Sequence record: NC_103192.1
DNA length: 64,000 bases
Strand: one strand, 5' to 3'
Origin: a phage
A program made the position numbers and the translations under genes. The notes beneath the pieces are model-generated. The model did no database searches, was not told where the DNA came from, and saw only the letters and a program-made list of their open reading frames with translations. Shown piece by piece: positions 9,312 through 63,600 of this stretch (position 1 is its first letter; every line of letters begins with the position of its first letter).

Positions 9312-12300
9312 ATGCTTCCAATCCCTTTGCTAAAACTTGGTCGTCATTTCCTCGATAAGAGGGGTGGAGTTAAGGAACTTGCTGTTCTGTCATACCCAAT
9401 AGACAACAGTGACGGTACAAGCACTACAGTAGCTTATGTAAATAGCTTAGCTATACTTTTTGACGACGGTCAGCTTAATATTACTGGCTATAACAAGTTC
9501 GGGGAGTGTCGCACTGGGGATCGTAACCCTATAAACTACCCGAGCGAGACGGCCTGGAATGTTGATCATGTGTGGAGAGCAGACCGTGCGTTTGTGATCC
9601 GGACTTTTGATAACCAGTTTTTCTACATCGGTTGCACTGCAGGTCTTATCGGATCCACTGCGGCAGGTGGTAACGATGTTTGCGTAAACGAGTGGACACC
9701 TCTTCCGGAACAGATTGTTCAAGGATTGCACCTTGACACCCACCCAGAGCGCCTTATCGAGGTAATGGGTGGTATTAACAACACTGTTTGGGTTATGGCA
9801 GAGGCTGAGGGTGACGGCATTTTACACCTGTACGGGTCTGGTAACAACACCTACGGATCTTTACATGTAGATAAGAACCAGCATGCAACTCCTGTAAAGA
9901 TTGGTGAAACATCAGAAAATCCTGAAACAGGCCCTTGGAAAAACCCAAGTATCAACTGCGAGGTGCATGACAACTCTGTTATTTTCGGTGGGCCTAGAGG
10001 TTTTTGGATTGCTGGATACGACTTTCTGAGAAACAACAGTAGAAACGACCTTGTTTGGCCCCCTGCTCAGATTACTCGCAACGATTTGAAAGGCATTCCT
10101 GCAGATGAGGAGTGGAAAGGATTCATGTGTGGTCCGAACGGGGCAGTGGTTGCAACACAAAGAATGCACAGACCTGATGACCAACAACTTGTTAACGTAT
10201 TTTATGGTCAAAACGTTTGGGGGGATGATACCTGGCGTGCTTTGAATATAACCTACACCCATGAGGTGATAATGGCTCGTGGGTACGGCACAAGTGGCAT
10301 TTTCTTCAACAATGGTACTAAGCAGTATCGTGGCTTCTCTCGAAACCTGTGCAACGATATTGGCGCACAATCTGCAAACAATAACCCCCGTGCCGATTTT
10401 GTTCATTACCAGGCCCTTGCTACGGCTAAATACGTTGAGCAACGCCTCCCAGTTAGCTGGACAGAGAGTGTTTATTTCCAAGGCATTCACAGAGAAGGTT
10501 TCTTAGGGACCTTTACTGTTGTTAATGGTAAACTTTGGTGGTCAGGCATCCCAAGGGGAAGTTTTGCAGGTTCTAATAACCTGTTTGGTGGCAGACTTAA
10601 TAGTCAAGGGTTCACAGAGGTTCCTGAGAATTGGTATAAAAATGTCCCAGTAGATAGTTGGGGTGTTGATGATATTTTTGACGTTAACGGTGTTAGCAGC
10701 GTTAGCAATATCTACATTGGTGACACGGTAAAGATGAAATTGAAGCCTCAGCCAGAGGGAGCTACGTTCATTATTGACAAGATTGAACTGGTAAATGCTG
10801 CAGGTACGGTTGTTACAGATGCAAATTACCAATTCTCCACCAACTGGAACCACGGCGGGGCCAACGAAGTTGTTGTTACTCAGTATAACAGGAATGTGAA
10901 CAGACGTGGCCTGTACTCTGTAAAAATAACCTATCATGACAAGCATGGCACAGGCAGAACGCACACGACAAGGAACTTGAACTGGAACACCATAGTTCCT
11001 GCGTATCCTTCTGACGGTAAGTGGCATACTGTCGGTAGAAACAAACAGTTCCATGTTAATGACACTGTATACTTCGGGCTGAATGGGACTCAGCCTGCGG
11101 TAGAAGGAGATACATCGTATATGGTCCGACTCCACAGAATGGATGGTGGATCAGTCACTTATGATGTTACCCAAGAGATTTATGATCAGAGACGAAATAC
11201 CTACAACAACTTAGTGCAGACACAGGCCGTATGGGAGTTCAACCCTAACGGCAGAGGTGGTAAAATGTTGCAGGTTAACGAGCAAAACGGAACGTCGTTG
11301 ACTGTCCACGAACACCCAGACCCTTGGCCTGATCCTGGAAAACCTCACCCAGGTGCTCGTACACTGAAAATTGTCAGCCATGATGCAGGATATTTCGGAA
11401 TACGCTGGGAAGCCACAGTAAGATATGCCGACGGGACAACAAACAACATAGGGATTACACTTGGGGGCACCAGTGAGGATAACTCACTGAAAATTGCCTA
11501 CACCCCTAGAGGCATCTCTATTGACAATATGGATGTTGTTCGCAACGGTTACGGAGATGTGAACATCAAAGTTACTCTTGGTGAACATCTTGGCGGGGAA
11601 AGGATCATCATGTACGCCTTTGATCACGACCCACGCACTGACGGAACCTATGCAGACCAAGCGTGGAGCTACCTGATAAGCGCACCTGAGCCAAATACCA
11701 AAGAATTCTACTACGGTATGAAACGGGATGTGTGCAAGAAAACAGGGACACATGACTGGATTGCAATCTGCGTTAAAGATGAACGTACCGCTTGGGACGA
11801 GCCTGTTAACAGATGGTTCATAGGAATTCCCACTCGAAGTGATAAATACGTTGAAGAATATATTGTATGCATGGGCGGCACCAACCTCAACATGTGTTGG
11901 AACGAGGATGCAAACAAATACTCTGATTACGATTATATGAGGGATTACTCTTGCAATCAATGGTTTAACCAAACCGGGTATGCTAATCGACAGTCAAGAG
12001 TAAACCCTGCAATCTTTACAGATACGCAGGTTTTCTTGACAAAACAGGCCAACGAGGTTCAGACCTTCAAGAACAAATACGACCCTAACAAGTGGTTTTA
12101 TAACTGTTATGGCGCATTTTTCTGGGGGCCAGGGGAACTGCCTAACGGGGGATCTTGCTTCGAGGCTGCAACTTACGCCAGTGACAGGTTCATGGGGCAG
12201 GTTAAGAAGTACAAGATAATCCCCGGGCCTGAAACTTTAGGCAACGCTGTTGACCCATATATCATCATGACAGCACTAAGATCGAACATGGACGGAACAT

Positions 12301-19412: not shown

Positions 19413-20894
19413 TTATTTAGCGTACCCGATCAATTCTACAGTTTTCCCAAAGCTTGGGATATAATTTTTATTATACCCTTCGGTGAGAACCCATAAAGTA
19501 TCGTACTTTTTCCACTTGTTGTCAACAACCTTTTGTTCAAAGTTGTGCTCAAAGTAGAGGTCGGTCAGGACGATGACATCTTTTGCATTTGGTATGTTAG
19601 CGTCCAGATACTCGAACACGCAAGCGGCTGTTGTGCCCCATGTTGAGTGGACCTCGTAGTTGATCATCTCGTCGATGTTCCCGCGAGTGTATACTTTAAC
19701 CTCTCCAACCTCAGTTGACCAACAGAACATCGTAACCTTGAACTCTTTATACAGATTGCACAACCCAGTGATCTCATTGAACATTTTCTTTAAAGTTCTT
19801 TGTGAGATCGATCCAGAAACGTCTAAAGCCACCACAATATCTATAGTGTTTTCCGGATTACGACCAGGAACAACAACGTGCTGATTCTTGTTTATAGCTC
19901 CAACTTTTCGCATTGTGCTGGTCAAAGACCCAGATCGGCGACCAGGTTTTCTGTAGGTTAGTTCAGCCTTTCGTTTAGACAGCATACGTTGCTTAATGAT
20001 GTCTATATAATTGATTACAGGCTTGCCTCTGTTTTTGACAAACTCGCGCACAGCCTCAGGGCAACGACCTCCGGAAGCTTGCATTGCTGCTTCCAACATG
20101 TCACCAGAGTCCTGCATGGCCTGATCTTTATCAGATTGACTGATCACGGGTTGTGGCTGATCATACCCCATAGCCTTTCCAAGATCGTCACTTGTGCCAC
20201 CGTTCCCACTCATGTGATCATCGGTTTGTCGTTTATCTCCTTGAGAGTTCTCGCCTTTACCGTTCTTACTTTTACCACTATTCTGATCTCTTTGCTTATC
20301 AAGAACTGCATAGACGTTCTCAGCAATCCATCCATGGAACCTCATGTCACAGTAGCAACTAGCTAAGAAGCCAAAAGGCTTACCTTTTACGAACGTAGTG
20401 CTTTTCCCCTTCGGAAAGAAAACACAAGGGGGCTTGCTAAAGTCAACCACAAGACCTGTGTTGATAACATGATCACAGGCAATATTGAACAGTTCCGGCT
20501 CAAAGCTTTTACCACGGACCAGATGATCGCAGATAATATGCCCCACTTCATGCGATAGAAGAAAGGCCACCTCTTTCACAGATTTGGGGGAATAGAAAAC
20601 CTCAGCCATCTCAAACTGCTCGTCAGTCAGAGATGCTTTAAGAATGGTTTTGCGCTCATCAGCCAGTCCCATAATGAACTCGGGACTGTAATAAATGCGT
20701 TTATGGTCTGTTGCCATGGTGGAGCACCATGTGTGGTTTTCTACGAACTGCAGCCCTGACAATAGTGTGCCATAAAACGGCAGTTTTTCAAGAAGATACA
20801 TGCGTGCTGCCTGCAGCATTCGCAAGGCGTCATCTTTTTGTGCGGCAATGATTTCTGAACTTCTGCTATCCATTAAAACTCCAGAAGGGGCCAA
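19413..20894 (-). CDS. metallopeptidase-like / von Willebrand factor A domain protein (CobT-like)
   Basis: HEVGHIICDH (HExxH) in N-terminal half; vWA MIDAS-type start IVVALDVSGSIS in C-terminal half. Confidence 0.75.
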   Translation of the reverse strand: MAPSGVLMDSRSSEIIAAQKDDALRMLQAARMYLLEKLPFYGTLLSGLQFVENHTWCSTMATDHKRIYYSPEFIMGLADERKTILKASLTDEQFEMAEVFYSPKSVKEVAFLLSHEVGHIICDHLVRGKSFEPELFNIACDHVINTGLVVDFSKPPCVFFPKGKSTTFVKGKPFGFLASCYCDMRFHGWIAENVYAVLDKQRDQNSGKSKNGKGENSQGDKRQTDDHMSGNGGTSDDLGKAMGYDQPQPVISQSDKDQAMQDSGDMLEAAMQASGGRCPEAVREFVKNRGKPVINYIDIIKQRMLSKRKAELTYRKPGRRSGSLTSTMRKVGAINKNQHVVVPGRNPENTIDIVVALDVSGSISQRTLKKMFNEITGLCNLYKEFKVTMFCWSTEVGEVKVYTRGNIDEMINYEVHSTWGTTAACVFEYLDANIPNAKDVIVLTDLYFEHNFEQKVVDNKWKKYDTLWVLTEGYNKNYIPSFGKTVELIGYAK

Positions 20895-20902
20895 CGGCCC
20901 CT
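20886..20902. other. GC stem-loop between two minus-strand genes
   Basis: aggggccaacggcccct; no T-run on the minus strand, so more likely a processing/stability hairpin than a terminator. Confidence 0.4.
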
Positions 20903-20906
20903 GTCA

Positions 20907-21962
20907 TTATTTAACGTGCTTGAAAATACCAGCCAACTCGGTCATTGTCATGCGAGTGGTCTTCATAAGGTCTGTCATAGCCTTCTCCATAATTGGAGAT
21001 ACTACCATAAAGTTACCTTTGGTGAAACCTTTATTCCAGTCGGTCACTAATAACGGTTTAAGTCCTGCCCCGAAACGCTCACCAGTTAAAGCACAGCATT
21101 TTCGAATGTACGTGCTCTTAAATTGGCTGAATGACAGATCAACTTTCATACCTGCATCGTAGAACGTCTGGCAATAGAAAGTGTAGGCTTTAGCAATCTC
21201 AACATCGTCAGGCAGTGCAGGAACCTCTTCTGTAAGCCCTTCTTCGACCTTTTGAGGCTCTTTTTCCTCTTCGTGAGCCTGTTGCGTCATTTCTTCAATC
21301 TCTTCTGTTACAGGCTCATTTACGATGTCAGAAATGTGCTTGTTGGCTTCACGATTAGCCATGAAGTTTTTAAAATCCTGCATTGGTGACATATCTTCCT
21401 CCCATTCTTCGTCAAAGAGTGCCAGTTTATCCTCTTCCGTTCCATATTGCAAGATGAAATCTTCAAAAGTGTAATCACCTTTCAATTTCTCCATGCGCTC
21501 TTCGCTCAGGTGAAGCATCATCTGCTGGACAATTTTTCGATCAGTTTTGTCTTTAATCAAGACTGCGGTCTTTTTATCTACCAGACAGTCCTTCAGGGAG
21601 TTGCACCTTAACCCAACCACACAACAGTTATCAATTGCGTAAGGACCTTCATCATCTATCCGCTCTAAGGATGGATAGAAAGGATTGCCCAACCCGTTTT
21701 CATCTGTGTGCATGTCAAAAGGTATAAGGGTATAGTCGCACACCCCCTCTCCTAAAAGTTTTTTACCAAATAGGAGGTATTCTTCCCATGACAGGTTGAA
21801 CTCTATATCTCGTTTCCGTGCATTATTTTGTTTGCGTCTGTATTTTTTGAGCAGGCGCTCTAACTCTTCTGGTGTATAATATTTTTCAAGATTCATAAGT
21901 CGTCTCTTGTGCTTTGTAGGTGAAGAAATCTTATCAAGTGCCTCAACAGATGTCAACCTCAA
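20907..21962 (-). CDS. hypothetical protein with two HNH_3-like repeats
   Basis: SLERIDDEGPYAIDNCCVV resembles HNH_3 core, second degenerate copy near C-terminus; product tentative. Confidence 0.45.
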   Translation of the reverse strand: MRLTSVEALDKISSPTKHKRRLMNLEKYYTPEELERLLKKYRRKQNNARKRDIEFNLSWEEYLLFGKKLLGEGVCDYTLIPFDMHTDENGLGNPFYPSLERIDDEGPYAIDNCCVVGLRCNSLKDCLVDKKTAVLIKDKTDRKIVQQMMLHLSEERMEKLKGDYTFEDFILQYGTEEDKLALFDEEWEEDMSPMQDFKNFMANREANKHISDIVNEPVTEEIEEMTQQAHEEEKEPQKVEEGLTEEVPALPDDVEIAKAYTFYCQTFYDAGMKVDLSFSQFKSTYIRKCCALTGERFGAGLKPLLVTDWNKGFTKGNFMVVSPIMEKAMTDLMKTTRMTMTELAGIFKHVK

Positions 21963-22038
21963 AAACGTGTTGACTTTACTCTAAATCCACGATATAGTGC
22001 ACCCATTCTAAAGAAAACGAACACAGGATCACTTAATC

Positions 22039-22938
22039 ATGTCAAATCTTAACAGCTTTAGCACTCGGTGGAAACAAGATATCACAACCAATCTCTCAGC
22101 AGGGGATATCCTTTCTGCAATTTACGAGGCCTTGGATGATAAAGCTACTTCAAAATCGGTCTGTACCAACCCGCTAATTCCTATAGTAATGAAGGTGATT
22201 GAACGTAGGTTGGTATCCGGATCTGATAAGTGGACATATCTGGATAATGGAGGCCACACTTACTCCAACGGATATGTTGATATAAAAGTGGAATACGCAG
22301 TATCATATCGCCGGAGCGGCTCTGTAACTTTCAACTTCTCTGGTGGTTTCCGATCTCTGGCAACTTCACCTTTTGTTTCCTCAGAGGAGAAGTTTGAACT
22401 TCCGTTCCTTTGGATGATGGCTAACGCGACAGGCAAAACCCCTGTAAGCATTCGCGTAAAATACAACTACAACGGATCTAGTAAGATCTATGCCGAGAGT
22501 GTCTCAGCAAGTTTTTATTTTGTGATGGGAGATGGAATCCTCAAACATATAAAGATGTGTGATATGCATGATGTTATAAATGAAGTAACTGATAAGAATG
22601 TTCTAGTAAAAGACCTCAACAATTTTTATACACCTGGAGACTATTACGTCAACCGTCCACTGTGCATCTTTAATGCCGCACACCCTTTAGGTGAGTATTT
22701 GATCGCCAATAGCGATATTGCCAATAACCGCTTCGAGGTAGCAAGAGTACAGAATGAGGTGTTGACATCTTGCAAGAGTGGTGATAAGTTTACCGAAGAA
22801 GAGATGAGTGTTTTAGAAATGATGGGATATAAGTGTAGCCTTTGGGTAGATGAGGTGTTTAATGACGGCATCTATGGACAGGATATTTACCCGTTAAAGA
22901 AGTATACTGATTCCAGTTTAATTTACGCGGAGATTTGA
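22039..22938 (+). CDS. hypothetical protein
   Basis: 299-aa ORF, first gene of plus-strand block after divergent intergenic region. Confidence 0.6.
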   Translation: MSNLNSFSTRWKQDITTNLSAGDILSAIYEALDDKATSKSVCTNPLIPIVMKVIERRLVSGSDKWTYLDNGGHTYSNGYVDIKVEYAVSYRRSGSVTFNFSGGFRSLATSPFVSSEEKFELPFLWMMANATGKTPVSIRVKYNYNGSSKIYAESVSASFYFVMGDGILKHIKMCDMHDVINEVTDKNVLVKDLNNFYTPGDYYVNRPLCIFNAAHPLGEYLIANSDIANNRFEVARVQNEVLTSCKSGDKFTEEEMSVLEMMGYKCSLWVDEVFNDGIYGQDIYPLKKYTDSSLIYAEI

Positions 22939-23213
22939 CTATGATGAAGTCATGTGGTAGTGTATATTATGTTGGTGAGGATGTTCAGGCAGATAGTGTG
23001 TGGAAATCCATTAAGTCCACCACCGACGATGCCTTCTTGAGCGGGTTATGTTTCCCCAATCCAGGAGACATTCTCCCTCACCCTGGAGATTTTGTTGTCA
23101 ACAAGACGGACGGTTATACCGTGTGCCTGATGGTTGAAAAAATCTTTTTAGACACTAGACACAATCACCGTCTTGTGCTAAAATTTCAAGAATGTAAAAT
23201 GACAGTTGCCTAA
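22935..23213 (+). CDS. hypothetical protein
   Basis: 92-aa ORF. Confidence 0.45.
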   Translation: MTMMKSCGSVYYVGEDVQADSVWKSIKSTTDDAFLSGLCFPNPGDILPHPGDFVVNKTDGYTVCLMVEKIFLDTRHNHRLVLKFQECKMTVA

Positions 23214-23226
23214 GGAGGCCTTACCG

Positions 23227-23583
23227 ATGTCCAAAGTTACTTATCGTGCAGCTATTTACTGCAATGAACAACCAATCAATAATGACGGTCACTGCCTTTT
23301 TAAAGAAAATCAGTTGGGCTGTATTGTCCTCCCTGATGAAGGGGAAGGTTATCTGATTGCATTGACAGGGTTTGAGCCTGAAGCCTTGGAAGCCAATCTG
23401 GACTACCTGGTAGAGAAGGGTGCTGCAGACCTGGTTGCCAATGGCCTCTCCATAAGCCTTGAAGAAGTGGAGCGCTTCATGGGCAATTACCGTGTAGTGC
23501 GTGAGTTTACTGTCGAGGTGGAAACTCCAGAGTGGGGTAGCACTGAAACTAATGCTGAAGAAAAAGAAGAGGAGGTAGAATAA
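23227..23583 (+). CDS. hypothetical protein, acidic C-terminus
   Basis: ATG 8 nt after AAGGAGG; C-terminal EEKEEEVE. Confidence 0.5.
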   Translation: MSKVTYRAAIYCNEQPINNDGHCLFKENQLGCIVLPDEGEGYLIALTGFEPEALEANLDYLVEKGAADLVANGLSISLEEVERFMGNYRVVREFTVEVETPEWGSTETNAEEKEEEVE

Positions 23584-23840
23584 TGAAAGTGCAAATCTTG
23601 ACTAATGCCGAGAAGATGTTTATCGAAGATACGCCTTTTGAAACTGGTGAGCTACAGTTTGTATATTTTGTTGACTTAGATAAGGTTTTTCCTGCGCTGA
23701 ATCTGGGTTTGGAGAAAGTACCTTATAAAACTCTATGCCAGGTTGTCCGTGCCTTAGCGGCAGATGGGGAGTTCCGCACCCTTGAAGATATCCAGACCTG
23801 TGGGTATCTTGAACTGCAACGAGAAGAAGAGGTGGACTGA
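23583..23840 (+). CDS. hypothetical protein
   Basis: 85-aa ORF, ATGA overlap with upstream gene. Confidence 0.5.
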   Translation: MKVQILTNAEKMFIEDTPFETGELQFVYFVDLDKVFPALNLGLEKVPYKTLCQVVRALAADGEFRTLEDIQTCGYLELQREEEVD

Positions 23841-23842
23841 TA

Positions 23843-24223
23843 ATGGCCCAGTGGAAGACAACAGTTGACCTTCATGATCAGTGGTTAGGACGCATCACCG
23901 AAGACGGGAAACTAGTGGAGTGGGACAACAAGCATGTTAGCGAGTTGGCAAGCATTGTGGCTGGTAAATTACGCTCCAAGTTCCCTGAACAACTGGATCC
24001 TGATAGTTCAAAGTTCGATCCTGAGTTGGAGGATGTTGTATACTACTTCGACACCGTTGATGACTACGACGCGTGGTTTGCAGCACGGGAGCTTTACCCA
24101 CAAGGCTCTGCTATGCGCCAGATGGAAGAAGATTATCCTCCGTGTGAGCAATTCAATAGTGCAATGACTTGCCTCTATGATTGGGCAGATAAGAACCTTG
24201 TCTGGATTCGGACTGCATTTTAG
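23843..24223 (+). CDS. hypothetical protein
   Basis: 126-aa ORF. Confidence 0.5.
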   Translation: MAQWKTTVDLHDQWLGRITEDGKLVEWDNKHVSELASIVAGKLRSKFPEQLDPDSSKFDPELEDVVYYFDTVDDYDAWFAARELYPQGSAMRQMEEDYPPCEQFNSAMTCLYDWADKNLVWIRTAF

Positions 24224-24267
24224 TGGGCAGGAATGGCGGCAAGGATGCTGCTTAAGGAGTAGTAGAG

Positions 24268-24537
24268 ATGTTATACCAGCAATATGAACTTCGTGCAGAA
24301 AAAGAGTTAAATTTTGACAAAGATATTCACAGATATTATTATGGGAAAGTTAGAGGGCAAGCAAGAAAGTGTACTCCAACACTCTTTTATGCCAGCAGAC
24401 GACTAGCGCCAGAAGAGGCAACAGCAGAAAGGGTTGCATATGGCTGGAGAGTTGCGTATGATATTGACAGATCCGATGTGATGTCTGTTTTGGAAAACTT
24501 TGAAAACACTTACACACAAGTAGAGGACTTTTACTAA
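24268..24537 (+). CDS. hypothetical protein
   Basis: 89-aa ORF directly coupled to the ATPase gene. Confidence 0.5.
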   Translation: MLYQQYELRAEKELNFDKDIHRYYYGKVRGQARKCTPTLFYASRRLAPEEATAERVAYGWRVAYDIDRSDVMSVLENFENTYTQVEDFY

Positions 24538-25721
24538 TGTCAAGAAACGTATTCGAAAGTGGTCAAATCACTGTCCGCGAGTTGCCAGCTATTATTCAAT
24601 TTGCCCAGCGTCATAACCGATCTGTCCTGATTTTAGGACCGATGGGTGTGGGGAAGAGCCAGGTGATGAAGCAGATTGCTGATAATATGTTCGGTGAGCG
24701 AGATGACAACCTGGTTGACGTGCGGCTGTCAGATAAAGATCCTGCTGACTTGTCTGGACTACCTATCCCTGTAGAGGCAGATGGAACTACACGCACAGTG
24801 TTTGCAATTCCAGAATTTTGGCCTGCAGACTCGGACTGGAGCGGAATTATCTTTCTGGATGAGCTTACTCATGCAGATAACTACCTGCAGAAGGTTGCAA
24901 TGCAAATTATGCTCGACCACAAGTGCGGCACCTATGCATTTCCTAAGGGCTCTGTTTTTGTAGCTGCAGGTAACCGTTCTACAGATGGTACGGTTCTTTC
25001 GGCGCTCGAAGCTCCTCTGGCTAACCGCTTTATCATTGTAGAAGTTACAAGCAATGCAGAGGTGTTTATTGAGGACTATGCATTCCTTAATGGGGTGCAC
25101 TCCTCTGTAATTGGATATTTGAAAAGAGTTCCATCAGCTATTGATAATTATGAGGCTATGGCTGAGATTAATTGTCCATCTTTTGCCACACCGCGATCTT
25201 GGGTTGCTGCATCTGATATCTTGCACGATTTTGACAGCGGTATTATTTCTGACGCTATGGCCCGTGTTCTTCTGCAAGGTGCTATTGGTCACACTGCAGC
25301 GGTAGAGATCTGGACTTACCACACCAAGAAACGCAATTTACCGGAAATCGGTCGGATTATGGCAGGTGGCTGCAAAGAATACGTAGGTCCTAAGCAGCCA
25401 GACATTTTGTGGATTCTTGGATCTGAAGGTTGTATCGCTATTCGTAATATGATGGAAAATGCAAGTATCTCAGACGAAGATCTTGTCAGCTGCGTGGCAA
25501 ACTTCCTCGATTTCCTTTGGGAAAACTTCAAGGACGAGAACCGAGATTTTGTATTCTCAGTCTTTATGGCGATGATGAAACCTAATGCCTTAGGAAATGC
25601 CTTGCTTATCGGTAAAGGGCGTGACAAGATTGTTGCTCAGCTGATCAAAGCATACCCAAACCTGATGAAGATTGTAAAAGAGTTTGGTGAAGAGTTTAGC
25701 GCCATTTTGGCTAAAGCTTAA
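24537..25721 (+). CDS. AAA+ ATPase, MoxR/CobS-like
   Basis: Walker A GPMGVGKS, Walker B IIFLDELTHA, sensor-like AAGN. Confidence 0.8.
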   Translation: MSRNVFESGQITVRELPAIIQFAQRHNRSVLILGPMGVGKSQVMKQIADNMFGERDDNLVDVRLSDKDPADLSGLPIPVEADGTTRTVFAIPEFWPADSDWSGIIFLDELTHADNYLQKVAMQIMLDHKCGTYAFPKGSVFVAAGNRSTDGTVLSALEAPLANRFIIVEVTSNAEVFIEDYAFLNGVHSSVIGYLKRVPSAIDNYEAMAEINCPSFATPRSWVAASDILHDFDSGIISDAMARVLLQGAIGHTAAVEIWTYHTKKRNLPEIGRIMAGGCKEYVGPKQPDILWILGSEGCIAIRNMMENASISDEDLVSCVANFLDFLWENFKDENRDFVFSVFMAMMKPNALGNALLIGKGRDKIVAQLIKAYPNLMKIVKEFGEEFSAILAKA

Positions 25722-25730
25722 GGGGGTTGT

Positions 25731-26111
25731 ATGGCTAAAGTAGGTAAGCGGGGAAACTACCTGGTGGTATTGACCGAGGAGCCGGAGAAGGAGTACGAAT
25801 GCAGCTCCACTTGCGTGATCGATATCCGAGAAAAAGATGTAGATGAAATCTGGTTTAAAATATTGGACGCTTGCGATAGCAGTGATTATTTCTTCATCTA
25901 TGTCAACGATAAGGCTGGGTTCTTCCATGACGACGGAGAGTTGCCGTATGAAATCTATGAACTTGTAGAGGCTTGCCATCGTGGAGATGCGGAGTTATTT
26001 GGCTTACGGCTGAAAAGCGGTAAATTCTTCTACCAAGACGAGTGCATGAATCTTCACAACTTCGTAGAGGGAACTTGCAACGATGGAGAGATTTTGGCAC
26101 ACTACGACTAA
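25731..26111 (+). CDS. hypothetical protein
   Basis: 126-aa ORF. Confidence 0.55.
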   Translation: MAKVGKRGNYLVVLTEEPEKEYECSSTCVIDIREKDVDEIWFKILDACDSSDYFFIYVNDKAGFFHDDGELPYEIYELVEACHRGDAELFGLRLKSGKFFYQDECMNLHNFVEGTCNDGEILAHYD

Positions 26112-26123
26112 TTTCTAAGACCA

Positions 26124-26150
26124 CCCCCGCTTCGGCGGGGATTTTCTATT
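26124..26150 (+). terminator. intrinsic terminator
   Basis: cccccgcttcggcgggg (UUCG loop) followed by attttctattt. Confidence 0.6.
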
Positions 26151-26160
26151 TGGAGCTATT

Positions 26161-26661
26161 GTGAAAATTAAAATCTTTGCTATTATTTTGAGCGCATTTT
26201 TATCGCTGCCTGTTGTTGCAGCACCCAAACAAAAAGTATATCACACCTGCAAGCCATCGGATACTAAGGAGAACATTCTGGCATGCAATATCTACAGGGA
26301 AGCCAGAGGAGATGGCACGATGGGTATGCTGGCATCAGGGTTTGCCACACTAAACAGGAAATCTCACCCCAAATACCCGGACACCATAAGAAAGATTGTC
26401 TACCAACCTAACCAGTTTTCGTGGACAAACCACGGCAAAACTTTTAAGGTGACAGAAAAAGATTCATGGGATCACGCTAAAAGTCTTGCAAAGATGCTTC
26501 TAAAGGTCTATAATAACAACCATGTTGCATACATGGCTATGGATATAACAGGTGGAGCAACGCACTATCATACAACAAAAGTACGACCGAAATGGGCAAA
26601 AAAGATGCAGAGGACAGCTCAATTCGGGAGTCATATCTACTACAAGGAGCGCAATAAATGA
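26161..26661 (+). CDS. SleB-type cell wall hydrolase with signal peptide (candidate endolysin)
   Basis: N-terminal MKIKIFAIILSAFLSLPVVAAP signal-like segment; NIYREARG motif of the Hydrolase_2 family; GTG start after GGAG. Confidence 0.7.
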   Translation: MKIKIFAIILSAFLSLPVVAAPKQKVYHTCKPSDTKENILACNIYREARGDGTMGMLASGFATLNRKSHPKYPDTIRKIVYQPNQFSWTNHGKTFKVTEKDSWDHAKSLAKMLLKVYNNNHVAYMAMDITGGATHYHTTKVRPKWAKKMQRTAQFGSHIYYKERNK

Positions 26662-28640
26662 TTGTAAACAGTAATGAAACTAAAGCAGTACTAACCGGAA
26701 ATATGGAGGTCACCAGGGGCTCAATTTCTCTGAACAAAGAGACTTTTGGGCTAATCATTAAAGGGATTTACGAAGATAAGGTGCTGGCAAGCTGCCGTGA
26801 ACCAATCTTCAATGCCGTGGACTCCCATGTTGAGTCTGGACGAGGTGATGTACCGATCATTATTCACTCTCCTACAGACCTTGAACCATACTTCTTTGTG
26901 CAGGACGTTGGATTGGGCATGTCAGAAGAGATGGTCCGCAACACTTTCATGAACCTCGGGGAGTCAACCAAGCGCAACAGCAACGCTCTGGTAGGTAATA
27001 AAGGTGTAGGTTCAAAGGCCCCGTTCAGCATGGTGGACACTTTCGATGTGATCAGTGTGCACAACGGTGTTGAAAGCACATATCTGTTGTTCTTGGATCA
27101 GGGTATCCCAAACGTTACCAAGATCCGCGAGCGGAAGACTGAAGAGCACAACGGGGTAAAAGTTCAGTTCCATGTTAAGAAAGAGCATGTCCTGAAATAT
27201 CGCACTGCTATTGCATCGTGCTTACGCTATGCGAAGTTTCCGTTCACCGTCACCGACCCTATGACCAGTAAAATGCTGGAAGGTGACAAGGTTGAGGCGC
27301 AGTATCACTACGAGAAAGATGGTTGGAAAATGACTATCCTAAAGGGCTATACCAGCTCTGACGAGAGTCGTGTGGTAATGGGGCACCAACCTTACCGATC
27401 TAAATTTCTGGAAACATTGACAGACTACCCTGCAATCTGTGTAGAGATCCCTATCGGGGATTGCAATATTAACCCAGGGCGTGAATGGACTATAGAGGGT
27501 CACGACGATGGTGGATTCCAAGAGCGTCTGGAGGCTTTTGTCAAAGAGGGTATCCGCCTACGTGGGGCAGAAGTTGTTGCGGAATTAGAGACAGCAAAAA
27601 CATCCTCAGAAGCACGCGAGATGATGAAGAACAGTGGAGTGTTCGGGCACATCTTCGGTAAAAATTTTATGTGGGAACGATGGGAAGAGACAGGACTAGG
27701 AAGCTTGGGAGATTGCGAGATCTTCGCTGGCGGCTTAAATAAAGGCCGTATAGGTTACGCCTGCTACGGAAAGGTAGAATTCTTACGGGGAGTCTATTTA
27801 GTATTTAACGACGGAGACGGCAAATATAACCGAAATAAGTGTAACTACTTAAGCGAGATCACCGGACGCAACGTTTTCTATTGCCGAAACACGGATCTGG
27901 TGAAAGAGTTTAAAGAGGCGGCACACCATCCTTTCTTTGCAGATACGGTCAAATTGTTATCAGAGCTCCCTCGCCGACCTGCGAAGAAAGGTGAAACAAA
28001 AACTCATTATGAGCCAGGCTATTGGGTTAAAAAACTTGAGAAGGATGGTTACTTCCGTCGTGAGCGTATTACTAAGGCAGAGTTCAAGAAGATTAAGCAC
28101 TGCATTCCTTATGAGGGTGATATCCAACGTGGAAGTTGTTGGCTGGGACAGCTAAGTAACATCTACCAGCAAAATTATGACCGTGTGCGTGCGGCACTCC
28201 AGATTCCTGAAGGGGAAGATCTGTACCTGGTATCAGAATCTCGTCTGCTTTGGACTGATCCTGATTGCCAGTATGTTACAGAGAAAAATGTGGAACATTT
28301 GTTGAAAGAGGACGCCTGGAAATTCTTACTGACTCGCGCAGCAAATGAAACTTCATATGACAGCCTGTATAGACAATTAGGGAAAATTATCCCCATGCAA
28401 GATTTTGGAAATTATCGGCCACATTTTCACAAGTGGGAAGGTAACACCGCGTGGAAGCACAGTGAGCTAAATCATCGTGCCAAAATCTTAATCGCCAACC
28501 GAGTCAAGTGCGGGAAGGCCTATATTGCAAGATTGGAAAAGAAATATCCACTTTTGAAGCATGTGGGCTTGAAATATTGGGACACTCCTGCTATGATTGA
28601 ATACCGTGAACTGATCGACGCAAAGAATAACACCAAATAA
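26658..28640 (+). CDS. rIIA: rIIA-like protein (GHKL ATPase fold)
   Basis: DVGLGMSEEMV and GNKGVGSKAPFS match the T4 rIIA ATPase motifs; immediately followed by rIIB. Confidence 0.75.
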   Translation: MIVNSNETKAVLTGNMEVTRGSISLNKETFGLIIKGIYEDKVLASCREPIFNAVDSHVESGRGDVPIIIHSPTDLEPYFFVQDVGLGMSEEMVRNTFMNLGESTKRNSNALVGNKGVGSKAPFSMVDTFDVISVHNGVESTYLLFLDQGIPNVTKIRERKTEEHNGVKVQFHVKKEHVLKYRTAIASCLRYAKFPFTVTDPMTSKMLEGDKVEAQYHYEKDGWKMTILKGYTSSDESRVVMGHQPYRSKFLETLTDYPAICVEIPIGDCNINPGREWTIEGHDDGGFQERLEAFVKEGIRLRGAEVVAELETAKTSSEAREMMKNSGVFGHIFGKNFMWERWEETGLGSLGDCEIFAGGLNKGRIGYACYGKVEFLRGVYLVFNDGDGKYNRNKCNYLSEITGRNVFYCRNTDLVKEFKEAAHHPFFADTVKLLSELPRRPAKKGETKTHYEPGYWVKKLEKDGYFRRERITKAEFKKIKHCIPYEGDIQRGSCWLGQLSNIYQQNYDRVRAALQIPEGEDLYLVSESRLLWTDPDCQYVTEKNVEHLLKEDAWKFLLTRAANETSYDSLYRQLGKIIPMQDFGNYRPHFHKWEGNTAWKHSELNHRAKILIANRVKCGKAYIARLEKKYPLLKHVGLKYWDTPAMIEYRELIDAKNNTK

Positions 28641-53172: not shown

Positions 53173-53520
53173 ATGATCAGCGGGGCAAGTTTTATTATTG
53201 GCGCTATTGCTACGGCTTTAATTGTAAACAAGATCCAGGATAAAAAGGAAAGTACCGCCCTTGCAGAATATCCATTTTGGACATTCAACGATAATGAAGA
53301 TTATATTGTAAAGTATAAAAATAAAGAAGGTGACCAAGTAACACCGCGACCGATCCCGGCTTACAAAATGCAGGAAACACTGTACCGCCTGGAAGCGGGG
53401 GGCGCAAAAATTGTAGACTTTTGGGGATACGATCACACAGATCAGGAAGTTATAAAGCGCCGTATCCGGGCTATTCAGGCCAATATCGAAGTTAGTAAGG
53501 GGGGAATATATGAAGATTAA
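53173..53520 (+). CDS. hypothetical membrane protein
   Basis: ATG after AAAGGAGAAAG; N-terminal hydrophobic segment. Confidence 0.5.
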   Translation: MISGASFIIGAIATALIVNKIQDKKESTALAEYPFWTFNDNEDYIVKYKNKEGDQVTPRPIPAYKMQETLYRLEAGGAKIVDFWGYDHTDQEVIKRRIRAIQANIEVSKGGIYED

Positions 53521-53707
53521 TTTTGAAAAGATTGTAAAGCGATCTCATGATTCCGAAGAGCTGCCGGAACGCCGCCAGCGTAACAATAAACTGAATAAGC
53601 CAAAAAGATTTGGGAAGATCTGGCGGAATCATTATGATCGCAAATTACCGGGCCTGCTTTTGGAACGTGAACGACAGGCGGAACGATACCGCCACAAAGG
53701 CAAATAA
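53510..53707 (+). CDS. small basic protein
   Basis: 65-aa Arg/Lys-rich ORF. Confidence 0.45.
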   Translation: MKINFEKIVKRSHDSEELPERRQRNNKLNKPKRFGKIWRNHYDRKLPGLLLERERQAERYRHKGK

Positions 53708-53715
53708 CAACCAAC

Positions 53716-53741
53716 GCCCCGCCATTGTGCGGGGCTTTTTA
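53716..53741 (+). terminator. intrinsic terminator
   Basis: gccccgccattgtgcggggc followed by tttttatttc. Confidence 0.65.
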
Positions 53742-53952
53742 TTTCTATCCTACGAATAGCGCCCCTGGTTGGCCCCACAAACGCCACAAAAGCCCCTACC
53801 TATGCAATCCCCTTTCTTAATCTGAAAACATCACCCAGGGCCGTTTTATGGCGTTAAAAATATTATTGACAGTTATTTTATTTAAAGCTTGACACCTTGG
53901 AATAGTCCGGATATACTAGCCACATCAAAGCAAGAAGGAAGGAGTAAACGCC

Positions 53953-54213
53953 ATGCGTAAATTGAAAAATTTTGATAAGGTCGATGCAGTACTAAATAAT
54001 TTTTACTACTGCAATAATAAAGCCGTTTGGTGGCGTGATAGTTCCACCGATAAAGTTAAAGCGCGCTTTCTCCAGGGGCACTGGCAAGGCCGCCCAGTGA
54101 TTAAAATCTTGGGGCAATTGGTAGCGTTTAAAAATTGCCGCCGTGTTGATGACGTTGAAGAGATTTTAAACATTTTGCGCCACAATAATTTAAAAAATAG
54201 TGTTGACAAGTAA
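53953..54213 (+). CDS. hypothetical protein
   Basis: 86-aa ORF after GGAAGGAG. Confidence 0.5.
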   Translation: MRKLKNFDKVDAVLNNFYYCNNKAVWWRDSSTDKVKARFLQGHWQGRPVIKILGQLVAFKNCRRVDDVEEILNILRHNNLKNSVDK

Positions 54214-54285
54214 GTATCAATAAGTATACTTAAACACAGGCGGGAAAACTTCCCGCCACTAACAAAGAAAATAGGAGAAAATATC

Positions 54286-54909
54286 ATGACCACCGTTAAC
54301 ATTACCACAGGTTACAATTTAGCTTTCGACGTGCTGACCGACGAACAAAAAGAAAAAGCCGTTGAAATGGTCCGAGAAAGAGAAGAACACAGCGGGGATA
54401 ACTTTTTTGCAGAAAGTGTAATTGAAGACTATAAAGAATATGTCTTTCCAGAGTATGGCCTTGAAGATACCAAGGTACATTGGTCCGGCTTTTGGTGTCA
54501 GGGTGACGGCGCGTCAATCAGTGCGGAAAACGTGGATTTAGAAAAATTCTTGCGTAAAGTCAAGTCTCTGACTAAATTTCGCTCAATTCGTCACTTGTTC
54601 GGCACAATGCACGATGGCGAACTATCCGCAAGTGTTGAGCGTGATCCATATAGCCGCTATAGCCACGAAAACACTGTAAACGGGTACATCGATACTACAT
54701 GGCTAGACCTGACCGCCAAACAAGAAGATAAAGTGGAAGATTTGGAAGAACTGATCACCGAGACGGTACGGGAGCTATCCCGCAAGGTTTACGTAGACTT
54801 GGAAGCGGCCTATTTGGAGCAATTCACATCTGAAAACCTGATCAACCTTATTAAGGACAATGATTGGCGGTTTGATGTAGATGAACATGGCGAGATGACT
54901 TTTTCATAA
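54286..54909 (+). CDS. hypothetical protein
   Basis: 207-aa ORF after ATAGGAGA; preceded by promoter and hairpin ggcgggaaaacttcccgcc. Confidence 0.55.
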   Translation: MTTVNITTGYNLAFDVLTDEQKEKAVEMVREREEHSGDNFFAESVIEDYKEYVFPEYGLEDTKVHWSGFWCQGDGASISAENVDLEKFLRKVKSLTKFRSIRHLFGTMHDGELSASVERDPYSRYSHENTVNGYIDTTWLDLTAKQEDKVEDLEELITETVRELSRKVYVDLEAAYLEQFTSENLINLIKDNDWRFDVDEHGEMTFS

Positions 54910-60211: not shown

Positions 60212-60475
60212 ATGAAACGTCTTGACCAGCTCAAACTAGTTCAATATATGGCTTATCGTGTTCTTGAAGTACAGAAAGGTAGCAAAAAAGAGGTTTGCGA
60301 AAAAGCGTACAAGATCTTTACTCGTAAAAAAGATGATTGGATGTTACGCCAGACCAAAAAAGCCGATATCCTGGGGTACCTGGAAGAAGAGATCCGACTT
60401 GAAGAGCAAGAAGAGATCCGCCGTAGTGAGGCAGATTATCAGGCAGCTTGGGAAAACTGGATGAGCAACAAATAA
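60212..60475 (+). CDS. hypothetical protein
   Basis: 87-aa Lys/Glu-rich ORF. Confidence 0.5.
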   Translation: MKRLDQLKLVQYMAYRVLEVQKGSKKEVCEKAYKIFTRKKDDWMLRQTKKADILGYLEEEIRLEEQEEIRRSEADYQAAWENWMSNK

Positions 60476-60618
60476 TACAACAAGTTACGGTCAGGGGGTA
60501 ATAAAGCCCCTTGATCACATAAAAATTATGCTATCCCTGGTTGACAGGGATCGGCAGTTTTGCTATATTCTTTTTTGAAGGGAAGTTGTAAGAAAATTAA
60601 CTAAGAGGTAAAAACACC

Positions 60619-61038
60619 ATGAACATTAAATCTAATAATCCGGCATATAGCTTTGATAACGCTTTTTGTCACGGTCCGGCGGCGAAAGGATTCGAAATCG
60701 ATGGTAAACTAATTATTGTCAATGTTGACGGGGAAGAGGTTGCAGTATATCCGGTGGCAGACGTTAAAAGCCGTTTGCAATGCCGCATGGATGTTACCGC
60801 CTACCAGCTTGATCCGGTCCGCATAGTTGCCCTGGTCCTGGAGGAAGAGATCAAAGCAATGCACCACAGCAACAAGTTTATTGGTGACGCTCAAGATAAT
60901 ATGAAGGTGTGCCGCCATAAAGTTAATGAAGTGCTTAAAGAATATGGCTTTAAAGATCTGATGATCAAACGTGAGGAAAAATTCCGCTACCGTAACGACC
61001 TGGCAAATCGGATTTTTGAAATATACGAATCATTATAA
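60619..61038 (+). CDS. hypothetical protein
   Basis: 139-aa ORF after AAGAGG. Confidence 0.55.
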   Translation: MNIKSNNPAYSFDNAFCHGPAAKGFEIDGKLIIVNVDGEEVAVYPVADVKSRLQCRMDVTAYQLDPVRIVALVLEEEIKAMHHSNKFIGDAQDNMKVCRHKVNEVLKEYGFKDLMIKREEKFRYRNDLANRIFEIYESL

Positions 61039-61057
61039 TTTCTTAACTGAATTATCA

Positions 61058-61083
61058 AGGGGCTTAAAGGCCCCTTTCTTTTT
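61058..61083 (+). terminator. intrinsic terminator closing the small-gene module
   Basis: aggggcttaaaggcccct followed by ttcttttt. Confidence 0.65.
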
Positions 61084-61099
61084 GTCTGCTCTTCTCCTA

Positions 61100-63600
61100 C
61101 CATAAACGGCCCCACCCGGCAAGTGGAATAATTGACTAGCCAGCAATTGCCTGCACTGTACAAACATACAGGTAAAATAGTTATTGCATAACCTTTCATT
61201 GTGTGGTAGCAGTGCCATTTTTACACGTTTTTCCTTCCAAAATTGCACGTAATGCCGCTATTGCATAAATTTTAACCTGATGCATATCTTCAATATCTTG
61301 TCAACAACTAAAAATCTTTATAAGTCATACACTTACACCACCACAAAAGCGTGTTCTACGTGAAAAATCGGGTGTAACTATAGCCGCCAGATCTCAGAAT
61401 TTACGTACGCTCACCAGTCTATAGCCTGCTAAGTATTTATTCCAACCATAGAATAACGGAATAGTCAATACCTGCATAAAATAATTATTCGTGTAAACTG
61501 CATAACATAAATCAGCCAGGGTGTCAACATTTTTCGTAAACATCTCGAAATTATCACGATGAGTTATCATAAACAGAGAAATCTTTAGTCGTCTAATGTT
61601 TACTGTACATTACTATACTGGCTGGAATCATTAGATGACTAAGAGAAAGATAAGAAATAGTTAACAATGTAATTGTTTTACCTGTAACAATAAGGCAACT
61701 ATGCAAACGAATGGCATGGCGCGACGGAGTCGCGACATAATATAAAAGCAGTAACCATCACCCCCGTGATAGTTTGTCTGCAAACTATTAATCAGATCAT
61801 AGTTGCCTTGTAGTTAGTTAATCATGACACAATAAGCAAGGCAACTATAGATCTGCTAATAGTTGCCCTGCTTTTATATTATGTCATAGAAACACCCGAA
61901 GGGGTGACCGAAGGTCACCTGGCCTAGCCAGTGAAAGATTATTAACTTGTTAATTGTTAACTTGCTAATTGTTTTCATGCAAACGAATGTCATGGCTTAT
62001 CATATCTGCGTGAACAGTGAAACATGGAAATGATAAATATGTGAACAGTTATCCATGTAAACTATTAGACATGCAAACAATCAGGTGTGCAAAAGTGACA
62101 TAGTATGTCACCAGTATGTCATAGTATGTCAGACAAGTTTTTCTCCTCTTTGTCAAGTGCTGCATGGAAAATTTACAAACTGGTATGGTAGCATTTTTGC
62201 GGCCCTGTTTACATTCAGGAGTGTATGTATAATCCTTGTTGTGTGGGCGTTTAGACGTCTGGACGGTCAGAAGTCCGCAGGTTAATATCTAATCTATTGG
62301 TTGCTAACTATATCCCACACAAATAGTAAGAAATATAATTGTTATATGCGTAAACAGTAACTCATGTTATCAATCCATGTATGGATCGCCAGTGGTGCGC
62401 ATAATGGGTATTATGTTAAATTGCCCGTAATGATAACCATTCCCACAATGATAGGTATTCTCATTCACCCCCACAAGATAGGTTGCAAATGTTGTGCCAC
62501 TGTGTGAACGGCCTCACCTATTAATTTGCCCCACTGCCTCGATATTTGAGAATTGTTATAAGAATGAGAAGTATTCCCATTCCGTCCGCCTGGCAGCACT
62601 CCAGTCGCTAACGCTCTCGGGCTGAGAGCTATGCTCGATGCTACCGGCTCCTGACAGGGAGGCACTCCTGTAGGACAGGTCAAAATCGGGGCATAACTGG
62701 ACCCCCCTTCAGATATTTCTGGCTGACTCTTCAGGTCTGTGTGGGAAAAGCCAACCTCTCCGGCAGAGGGGAGGGGGTCAATTAAAAAATTTACGTGGTG
62801 TATGAAGCGCTCTTCAGGCAAGGTGTGTATTATGGGAGGAATCACTCTTCAGGTGATGATATTTGTGGGTGTGATATTTGCTGGAAAGCCAGATATGACG
62901 GGACTCCCGGCGGGGCAGGGGTAGTACAGACAGGGAAAATGTGGAGAATGTGGTGGGTAAATTGATCAGGCAGGTAGAGTATGAAATATGTTACAGGTAT
63001 GTTAAATATGGAGGGTGAATATCTGTAAGATTTGTGTGTAAAATCAAAGACTTAAGTGGTGTTGTGGTATTTTCTATAAATAATTCAAGTTTAATAGGTA
63101 ATATTTGTCTCTATCCACTTTGTGTGGTAACCAGATTCAGATGAAATTGGTTTACAAGTGTATACATAATATACAAATTAAAGATACAAGAAACCCCCCT
63201 CCCCCTTCGGCTACCATTCACCTTTTCCTCTGACTGGTACTTAAACACTTATTCAGACTCTTCAGGTTATCACCCATATATCATATGGCAGTGACTGGTG
63301 TCCTCCGGCCCCTCTTTCGTCACCCGTCCGCTTCGCCATGCTAATGCCATAGCCAAAGGTTCGGTTGTTCACCCTGTTCACTCAGGTGTATCTCCATACC
63401 CCTTCAAACCGAAGAGAACAGAAAACCCGAATTACTCGGTAAAAGAAAAGAGAAGAACTTAATTTTATCAGGATAGGCAAGAATGTCAAGGCATGACTGC
63501 TCACTAAACAAGCAAACAGTCATGTGTGGGAGGTAAGTGATTGTGGTGGTAGGAAATTTAGTTGAAAGATGTGTTATAGGTGCTTCCAGCACTTTAGCCG
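61100..63600. repeat. 2.5-kb non-coding, repeat-dense region
   Basis: no convincing ORF; ggcaactat/atagttgcc x4 in alternating orientation (61691-61879); 18-bp inverted repeat gacataatataaaagcag / ctgcttttatattatgtc; agtatgtca x3 (62098-62135); ctcttcagg x4; attgcataa x3. Confidence 0.5.

Follow-up and report, generated by a model that had tools for sequence, protein, structure and literature searches.

The window analysed here is a 64,000-nucleotide stretch of sequence record NC_103192.1, which belongs to an rV5-like Vequintavirus (an Escherichia coli myovirus of 137 kb). It encodes on the plus strand a MoxR-class AAA+ ATPase and, divergently on the minus strand and 3.66 kb away, a protein with an N-terminal zincin-like metallopeptidase domain and a C-terminal vWA domain (Table 1). 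These two proteins are probably the subunits of one conserved binary machine, a reading held with moderate confidence, in which the two genes were split by an inversion and their products act inside the cell in early or middle infection. The minus-strand gene is the homologue of rV5 gp012 and the plus-strand ATPase gene that of rV5 gp004. The region 19413–25721, which spans both, shares 96.7% identity with Escherichia phage FV3 and matches 121 phage records at 90% identity or more. Both genes are under strong purifying selection, with dN/dS values against phage EmilHeitz of 0.034 for the peptidase-vWA gene and 0.019 for the ATPase gene. An earlier note on this DNA, made from the sequence alone, had placed both open reading frames (ORFs) correctly and on opposite strands, about 4 kb apart.

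Gene adjacency and co-distribution

Profile hidden Markov models (HMMs) of both proteins were built and then scanned over all fetched loci, and the searches for related loci used sub-alignments of an alignment of 30 sequences. Homologues of the ATPase and of the peptidase-vWA protein are directly adjacent on the same strand, the ATPase first, in 78 bacterial and 38 phage loci. Of the 80 gammaproteobacterial loci, 77 have the ATPase gene directly upstream of the gene for the peptidase-vWA protein, a member of family DUF2201, on the same strand and typically at a distance of 40–300 bp, while for the other three no more than 1 kb of upstream sequence was available; the same order is found in Sulfurivermis. 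Among viruses, the adjacent pair is present in all 17 N4-like podovirus contigs, in 12 other viral contigs and in two further loci (L004 and L005). Named phages with the adjacent pair are the Bacillus jumbo phage AR9 (g028/g029, which match the family HMMs with E-values of 8e-32 and 3e-45, respectively), the N4-like Pseudomonas phage LIT1 (gp33/gp35), the Cronobacter Certrevirus CR9 (gp126/gp127) and the unclassified coliphage W70 (W70_34/33). The converse search, begun with the ATPase, independently retrieved three homologues, and all three are directly followed by a gene with DUF2201_N and DUF2201 domains.

The two genes also have near-identical distributions. In 50,697 phage records, the vWA gene is found in 671 and the ATPase gene in 810, with genus counts (vWA/ATPase) of 213/213 for Escherichia, 104/106 for Pseudomonas, 26/26 for Pectobacterium and 17/17 for Cronobacter. 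On these comparative grounds the two genes are strongly supported as genuine partners, as the earlier note had proposed.

No conserved third gene, VMAP or substrate was universal beside the pair in the 78 bacterial loci, where the commonest extra neighbours are an unannotated 371-aa ORF directly downstream (33/78) and a BepA-like peptidase with M48 and TPR domains (20/78). Defence-system models (PADLOC) returned only P-loop-level noise, and NCBIfam nothing curated, so that the pair is not recognised as a vWA-MoxR ternary conflict system or another known anti-phage defence.

The peptidase-vWA protein

In the window protein, two Pfam domains score far above their curated cut-offs. The N-terminal one, DUF2201_N ('putative metallopeptidase'), has an E-value of 5.5e-28 and 98.8 bits where 23.2 are required, and the C-terminal one, DUF2201 ('VWA-like'), an E-value of 6.5e-11 and 42.9 bits where 26.4 are required. 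These two Pfam entries, PF13203 and PF09967, make up the DUF2201 family, named 'predicted metal-dependent peptidase' by the Joint Genome Institute (JGI), and the architecture is identical in 63 of 64 homologues. An 819-aa homologue (P0026) was considered as a fusion with the ATPase and rejected, as it has only a longer N-terminus and linker. The maximal ORF (19413–20894, minus strand) has 493 codons from a TTG at 20894, the end given in the earlier note. The true start is likely the ATG at 20873, which is preceded by a GGAG ribosome-binding site and gives 486 aa, the same as annotated in relatives.

The protein contains the motif HEVGH at residues 115–119 and the metal ion-dependent adhesion site (MIDAS) motif DVSGS at residues 358–362 (numbering of the 493-aa ORF), so that the N-terminal HExxH of a DUF2201-type vWA partner, noted earlier, is borne out. 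In the alignment of 30 phage and bacterial homologues, H115, E116, H119, H124 and D141 are invariant, as are the MIDAS residues D358, S360, S362, T421 and D445. H124 and D141 are candidate zinc ligands for the third position.

The N-terminal domain aligns with M48 peptidases in hhalign (92% probability, E = 5e-7) over the helix HExxHxxxxHLxR, where the M48 set comprised 20 genuine M48 peptidases from the fetched bacterial loci and four unrelated control families reached no more than 0.2%. A profile of the isolated domain matched only zincins in the PDB, and weakly: selecase with an E-value of 0.011, and BepA and HtpX with 0.2–0.4. The Pfam M48 model matches 7 of 13 members, each time below its threshold. 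Fold searches were swamped by vWA matches, the only kind returned, and a direct sequence search of solved structures with the vWA protein gave no match. In the AlphaFold2 model, where the predicted local distance difference test score (pLDDT) exceeds 90 across most of residues 11–120, the domain has three strands, the HExxH helix (106–121) and a helix (133–151) carrying D141, a topology compatible with a zincin. The two domains are joined by a low-complexity linker (residues ~211–234) rich in Gly, Ser, Asp and Lys and disordered (pLDDT below 50). Since the HExxH helix matches M48 and the domain profile matches zincins in the PDB, its identity as a peptidase is supported by sequence comparison at the level of the active site only.

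The MoxR-class ATPase

The ATPase, of 394 aa, contains the Walker A motif GPMGVGKS (nt 24636–24659) and the Walker B residues D108-E109 (nt 24858–24863). Walker A and B, the sensor-1 residue N146, R164 (in PLANRF) and R220 (in TPRSW) are invariant in 18 homologues, so that the residues expected for the Walker motifs, sensor 1, arginine finger and sensor 2 are all in place. Its AlphaFold2 model (pLDDT 82) has hairpins at residues 75–90 and 129–134, corresponding to a helix-2 insert and a pre-sensor-1 β-hairpin, the combination that defines AAA+ clade 7 and is judged here on a predicted structure. In Foldseek against the PDB, the top 18 matches are NorQ (including NorQ-NorD complexes) or CbbQ2, both of them MoxR proteins that have vWA partners, with a best E-value of 8e-8 and target TM-scores of 0.50–0.66, while RFC, ClpC and McrB rank below them. 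A direct sequence search of solved structures matched only the P-loop of ClpB and ClpC.

By BLASTP the ATPase is 32% identical (E = 2e-37) to the Sulfurivermis fontis ATPase that adjoins a DUF2201 gene and has precomputed AAA/AAA_5 hits. It also matches a large family of ~360-aa proteins at 31–37% identity (E ~1e-43 at database scale) with precomputed AAA_3/AAA_5 hits, unmarked in some members and 'weak' in others. Predicted structure and homology agree with the earlier assignment, and the window ATPase is placed in the MoxR class.

Both proteins could alternatively serve as a chaperone inserting a metal cofactor into a phage or host metalloenzyme, for example in nucleotide metabolism, in the manner of NorQD, CbbQO, BchID and CobST, with the HExxH motif holding or delivering the metal. 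The nearest solved structures of the ATPase, NorQ (iron insertion) and CbbQ2, fit such a role, and nucleotide-metabolism enzymes often neighbour the pair. However, no one metalloenzyme is conserved beside the pair, the catalytic glutamate of HExxH is invariant in 30 of 30 aligned homologues, and its helix aligns with active M48 peptidases, which is the pattern expected of a hydrolase rather than of a mere metal carrier. Metal insertion is accordingly regarded as decidedly improbable.

Origin of the split arrangement

The divergent layout, with 3.5–5.3 kb between the genes, is found only in Vequintavirus-like myoviruses, in all 19 loci (the window and 18 others), whose vWA proteins are 43–98% identical to that of the window. 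The genes have been kept adjacent in Certrevirus CR9 and W70, sister taxa within the subfamily Vequintavirinae, and in a 152-kb contig (L022). Every outgroup, bacteria included, has the operon, so the split is derived, and the ancestral layout by this comparison is a two-gene operon of the ATPase gene followed by the peptidase-vWA gene. When their proteins are compared, the gene orders of the window and CR9 are consistent with one inversion, with breakpoints between the two genes and near a cell-wall-hydrolase gene. A single old inversion, as reconstructed from gene order, explains the separation of the pair in Vequintavirus and its nearest relatives. The window is therefore an exception in gene order, and its partner has not been lost.

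After the inversion, the rightward unit comprises a gp10-like gene, small ORFs, the ATPase gene, the hydrolase gene, rIIA, rIIB and the helicase gene. In the window, the hydrolase is a SleB-type cell-wall hydrolase with a hydrophobic N-terminus (26161–26661, plus strand; Pfam Hydrolase_2, E = 2e-19), and it is followed by rIIA (26658–28640, plus strand; HATPase_c_3; PHROG 612), with rIIB and the helicase gene next in relatives. In the leftward unit, the vWA gene is second, after an Srd-like gene, and it is conserved in the whole clade, so that the 'accessory block' to which the earlier note assigned it is not an apt description. In the N4-like Vibrio phage 1.026.O (MG592410 / NC_049430), the two genes (53217–54317 and 60474–61187) lie on the same strand ~6 kb apart, so that the pair has been separated independently a second time.

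Promoters and transcription units

The features of the region are listed in Table 1.

Table 1. The two genes, their domains and the surrounding features (positions in the window)
Feature	Position	Strand	Basis or remark
Zincin-like peptidase + vWA/MIDAS gene	19413..20873	-	DUF2201_N + DUF2201; PHROG 1314, E 6e-122
C-terminal vWA domain	19431..19838	-	Complete MIDAS: D358-x-S360-G-S362 (nt 19809-19823), T421, D445
N-terminal zincin-like metallopeptidase domain, ~residues 8-210 of the 493-aa ORF	20265..20873	-	HEVGH at nt 20538-20552
G+C-rich hairpin with perfect 7-bp stem (AGGGGCC-AAC-GGCCCCT)	20886..20902		Between the Srd-like stop codon and the ribosome-binding site of the vWA gene
Srd-like 'anti-sigma' gene (rV5 gp011 homologue), head of the leftward unit	20907..21896	-	PHROG 3118, 4592, 1400; PMC3606486; annotation in relatives
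Divergent sigma70-like promoter pair, predicted	21928..21998		Consensus scan
89-aa ORF (rV5 gp005 homologue)	24268..24537	+	PHROG 13164; TAA overlaps the ATPase ATG (TAATG)
MoxR-class AAA+ ATPase gene, 394 aa	24537..25721	+	PHROG 1297, E 8.5e-110
Terminator-like hairpin CCCCGCTTCGGCGGGG + T-rich tail, predicted	26125..26140	+	After ORF 25731-26111

The predicted divergent promoters sit in the 142 bp that separate the Srd-like gene from the ORF at 22039. The minus-strand promoter (21956–21928) is TTGACA-17-TAAGAT with an extended –10 TG, and the plus-strand promoter (21970–21998) is TTGACT-17-TATAGT. In position they correspond to the bidirectional promoters of rV5, which its authors report between genes 10 and 11 (PMC3606486), and to the annotated rV5 promoter P11. 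A further sigma70-like site (24314–24342; TTGACA-17-TATTAT, 11/12), equivalent to rV5 P4, lies inside the 89-aa ORF that precedes the ATPase gene. This ORF has no Pfam match, and the 'ATPase' label of its PHROG is probably an annotation spill-over. The terminator-like hairpin, as predicted from the sequence, may end a short transcript from P4 that carries the ATPase gene. The hairpin upstream of the vWA gene, within which the TTG at 20894 falls, might serve the leftward unit as an attenuator, as a site of processing or to stabilise its RNA.

The earlier note took the split to imply differential timing of the two partners. The sequence does not support this inference: the split is a derived inversion, and both genes lie in a non-structural region behind predicted sigma70-type sites. 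As both are at or near such promoters, joint production of the two proteins most likely persists, and the promoter predictions make co-expression no less likely than staggered expression. The late structural genes of rV5, gp27–66, have a motif of another kind (PMC3606486). On another account, which would accord with the timing proposed in the earlier note, the Vequintavirus proteins have acted alone or with other partners, at different times, since the split. The opposite strands, the separate predicted transcription units and promoters, and the predicted co-transcription of the vWA gene with the Srd-like gene would suit it. It is nonetheless very unlikely, because all functional residues are kept in both genes across the split clade, down to 43% identity, both genes are under strong purifying selection and they co-occur across phage genera. 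MoxR ATPases and their vWA partners, such as NorQD, RavA-ViaA and CbbQO, are also not known to act independently.

Genomic context and the phase of infection

In phages, the neighbours of the pair are genes for helicase/DNA polymerase, dUTPase, ThyX/ThyA, 5'-3' exonuclease, rIIA/B and Srd, and structural genes are never found beside it in the loci examined. In the bacterial loci (L053–L132, of Chromatiales/Thiohalomonadaceae type), the neighbours are genes of proteostasis and housekeeping, namely those for thioredoxin, an Hsp15-like S4 protein, a BepA-like protein, adenylate kinase, ferrochelatase and Lon. In AR9, an annotated early promoter lies directly upstream of the adjacent pair.

A MoxR ATPase paired with a partner of metallopeptidase and vWA domains was described in group 2.2 jumbo phages by Iyer, Anantharaman, Krishnan, Burroughs and Aravind (Viruses 13:63, 2021; PMC7824862), who proposed a role in virion assembly. 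Theirs is the one published proposal for this architecture. By this explanation, the pair would act as a chaperone in building the head or tail, with structural proteins processed by the fused peptidase. The prediction was published for the same architecture and draws on the analogy with Acidianus two-tailed virus, which encodes a MoxR ATPase and a vWA-domain partner as a tail-development system (cited in PMC7824862 and PMC7159879). MoxR-vWA pairs are, in general, assembly and maturation chaperones. Although mass spectrometry of rV5 virions did not list gp004 and gp012, this is weak evidence and not decisive, since an assembly factor may be absent from virions. On the other hand, the pair adjoins replication, nucleotide-metabolism and host-takeover genes. 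The AR9 pair follows an early promoter, while 41 of 43 virion proteins of that phage come from late genes (PMC5312081). The same two-gene module also stands among housekeeping genes in bacterial chromosomes, and mass spectrometry of the virion of Certrevirus CB7 found a separate putative prohead core protease, CB7_5. A role in virion morphogenesis is therefore considered unlikely. The AR9 early promoter, the replication and nucleotide-metabolism neighbours and the bacterial chromosomal copies together favour remodelling or proteolysis inside the cell in early or middle infection.

Comparison with known systems

The jumbo-phage pair, including AR9 g028/g029, resembles the window pair in joining a MoxR-class ATPase to a partner with an N-terminal zincin and a C-terminal vWA domain. 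Its genes are adjacent, however, whereas those of the window are divergent and lie in a Vequintavirus, which is not a jumbo phage, and the genomic contexts found in this analysis do not favour the virion-assembly role proposed for it. NorQ-NorD, CbbQ-CbbO, BchI-BchD and RavA-ViaA likewise combine a MoxR ATPase with a vWA adaptor, but their partners have no peptidase domain and mature specific metalloenzymes. Over the Foldseek alignments the window ATPase shares only 15–21% sequence identity with its NorQ/CbbQ matches, and it differs from them in an extra C-terminal helical region (~residues 270–394). CobS/CobT is also a pair of a MoxR-type ATPase and a vWA protein, but CobT has no peptidase domain while the window partner belongs to DUF2201. 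'CobS/CobT-like', the term of the earlier note, is therefore imprecise, and no CobS/CobT family is among the Pfam hits (E ≤ 0.01) or the NCBIfam hits.

The system of Acidianus two-tailed virus, likened here by description and not by sequence, belongs to an archaeal virus, has no peptidase domain and serves extracellular tail development. It is reportedly the subject of a 2011 study by Scheele et al., and its proteins are presumably p618 and p892. The M48 zincins BepA and HtpX resemble the window N-terminal domain in their active-site helix HExxHxxxxHLxR, with Pfam M48 remaining below threshold. FtsH-type AAA+ metalloproteases are functionally analogous in combining an AAA+ motor with a zincin peptidase, but in the window motor and peptidase are separate polypeptides bridged by the vWA domain, and a membrane anchor is not evident.

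Proposed mechanism

From these observations we infer a physical interaction between the two proteins, a proteolytic activity, its timing and a client. The ATPase would presumably form a hexamer, on which the vWA/MIDAS domain may dock as NorD does on NorQ, or capture an acidic residue of the client, or both. In the NorQD system, the finger of the NorD VWA domain enters the NorQ pore and NorQ remodels the NorD linker (PMC13036017); the disordered linker of the window protein may be the part that its ATPase pulls. The M48-like zincin domain would then cleave or process the client. The whole would be a two-component, ATP-dependent metalloprotease, and both proteins would act inside the cell, in early or middle infection, rather than in the virion.

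A bolder form of this mechanism is an 'FtsH in two pieces', with the vWA domain as the bridge: a trans-acting, ATP-driven and site-specific metalloprotease that would cleave a conserved host protein early in infection in unrelated virulent lineages, namely Vequintavirinae, N4-like Schitoviridae and several jumbo phages. The target might be a factor in defence, proteostasis or transcription, for instance, and the Vequintavirus gene for the peptidase subunit, transcribed together with the Srd-like gene, would belong with it to one host-takeover unit. In this full form the proposal is speculative and improbable.

Several points weigh against the two proteins being subunits of one intracellular machine. 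No member of the family has experimental support for interaction, ATPase activity or proteolysis, and a fusion protein of ATPase and vWA domains was not found. In one 136-kb viral contig (L013, IMGVR_UViG_3300045988_163358), the vWA gene (9953–11512), whose product is 46% identical to the window protein, has no ATPase gene within 10 kb on either side. The promoters are consensus predictions, from a scan that gave 18 sites against 13 expected in shuffled sequences, and a Vequintavirus transcriptome was not found in the literature. The window ATPase itself scores under every Pfam AAA cut-off (bpMoxR 15.6 against 27, AAA_5 16.8 against 22), and hence, among the profile searches suggested earlier, those for the DUF2201 domains passed their cut-offs while that for AAA_5 did not. 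As the homologues at 31–37% identity do have AAA_3/AAA_5 hits, the low score of the window protein reflects divergence and not exclusion from the class.

Annotation in public records

Public records of Vequintavirus already name the two genes 'MoxR ATPase' and 'putative metallopeptidase / VWA-like domain-containing protein'. The peptidase-vWA protein of the window, rV5 (gp012), CR9 (gp127) and LIT1 (gp35) is often mislabelled 'HNH endonuclease' (PHROG 1314, RefSeq), while no HNH domain is found in it by Pfam. Further labels attached to it are 'anti-sigma factor' and 'DNA repair ATPase'. In the RefSeq genome of rV5 (NC_011041, 7756–9217), gp012 has only 441 aa and an overlapping gp013, whereas the protein has 486 aa in the window and in other relatives, and the short form is probably a frameshift or a sequencing error in that reference genome. 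Sixteen GenBank records of 'Campylobacter phage' with host C. jejuni (MG065644, MG065690, MG065662 and others) also match the region 19413–25721, the six listed being ~94% identical to it in DNA and 97–99% identical in their proteins. The host label of these records looks doubtful and may come from contamination or mislabelling.

Significance

This is not a new kind of system, as its kind has already been described in jumbo phages and the window genes carry labels in public records. In the papers searched, no statement was found that rV5 gp004 and gp012 are two halves of this module, that an inversion confined to this clade split an ancestral operon, or that the module occurs as widely as in N4-like phages and bacterial chromosomes. 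A literature search on 'DUF2201' gave no relevant paper, and one on N4-like phages and von Willebrand domains found nothing. The pair goes unmentioned in the CRISPRi-ART paper and in two preprints on transposon mutagenesis.

The module is present in ~1.3–1.6% of sequenced phage genomes (the vWA and ATPase counts given above, respectively) and covers three very different virion types as well as bacterial chromosomes, yet it is frequently mis-annotated. For Vequintavirus, the comparison indicates that gp004 and gp012 are halves of one module although split, and that the ancestral state was a two-gene operon, while its genomic surroundings speak for a role inside the cell, early or midway in infection, more than for virion assembly. 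The value of the finding lies in a corrected annotation and in a testable hypothesis for a genetically tractable E. coli phage, of which members are available in the BASEL collection (e.g. Bas49 EmilHeitz).

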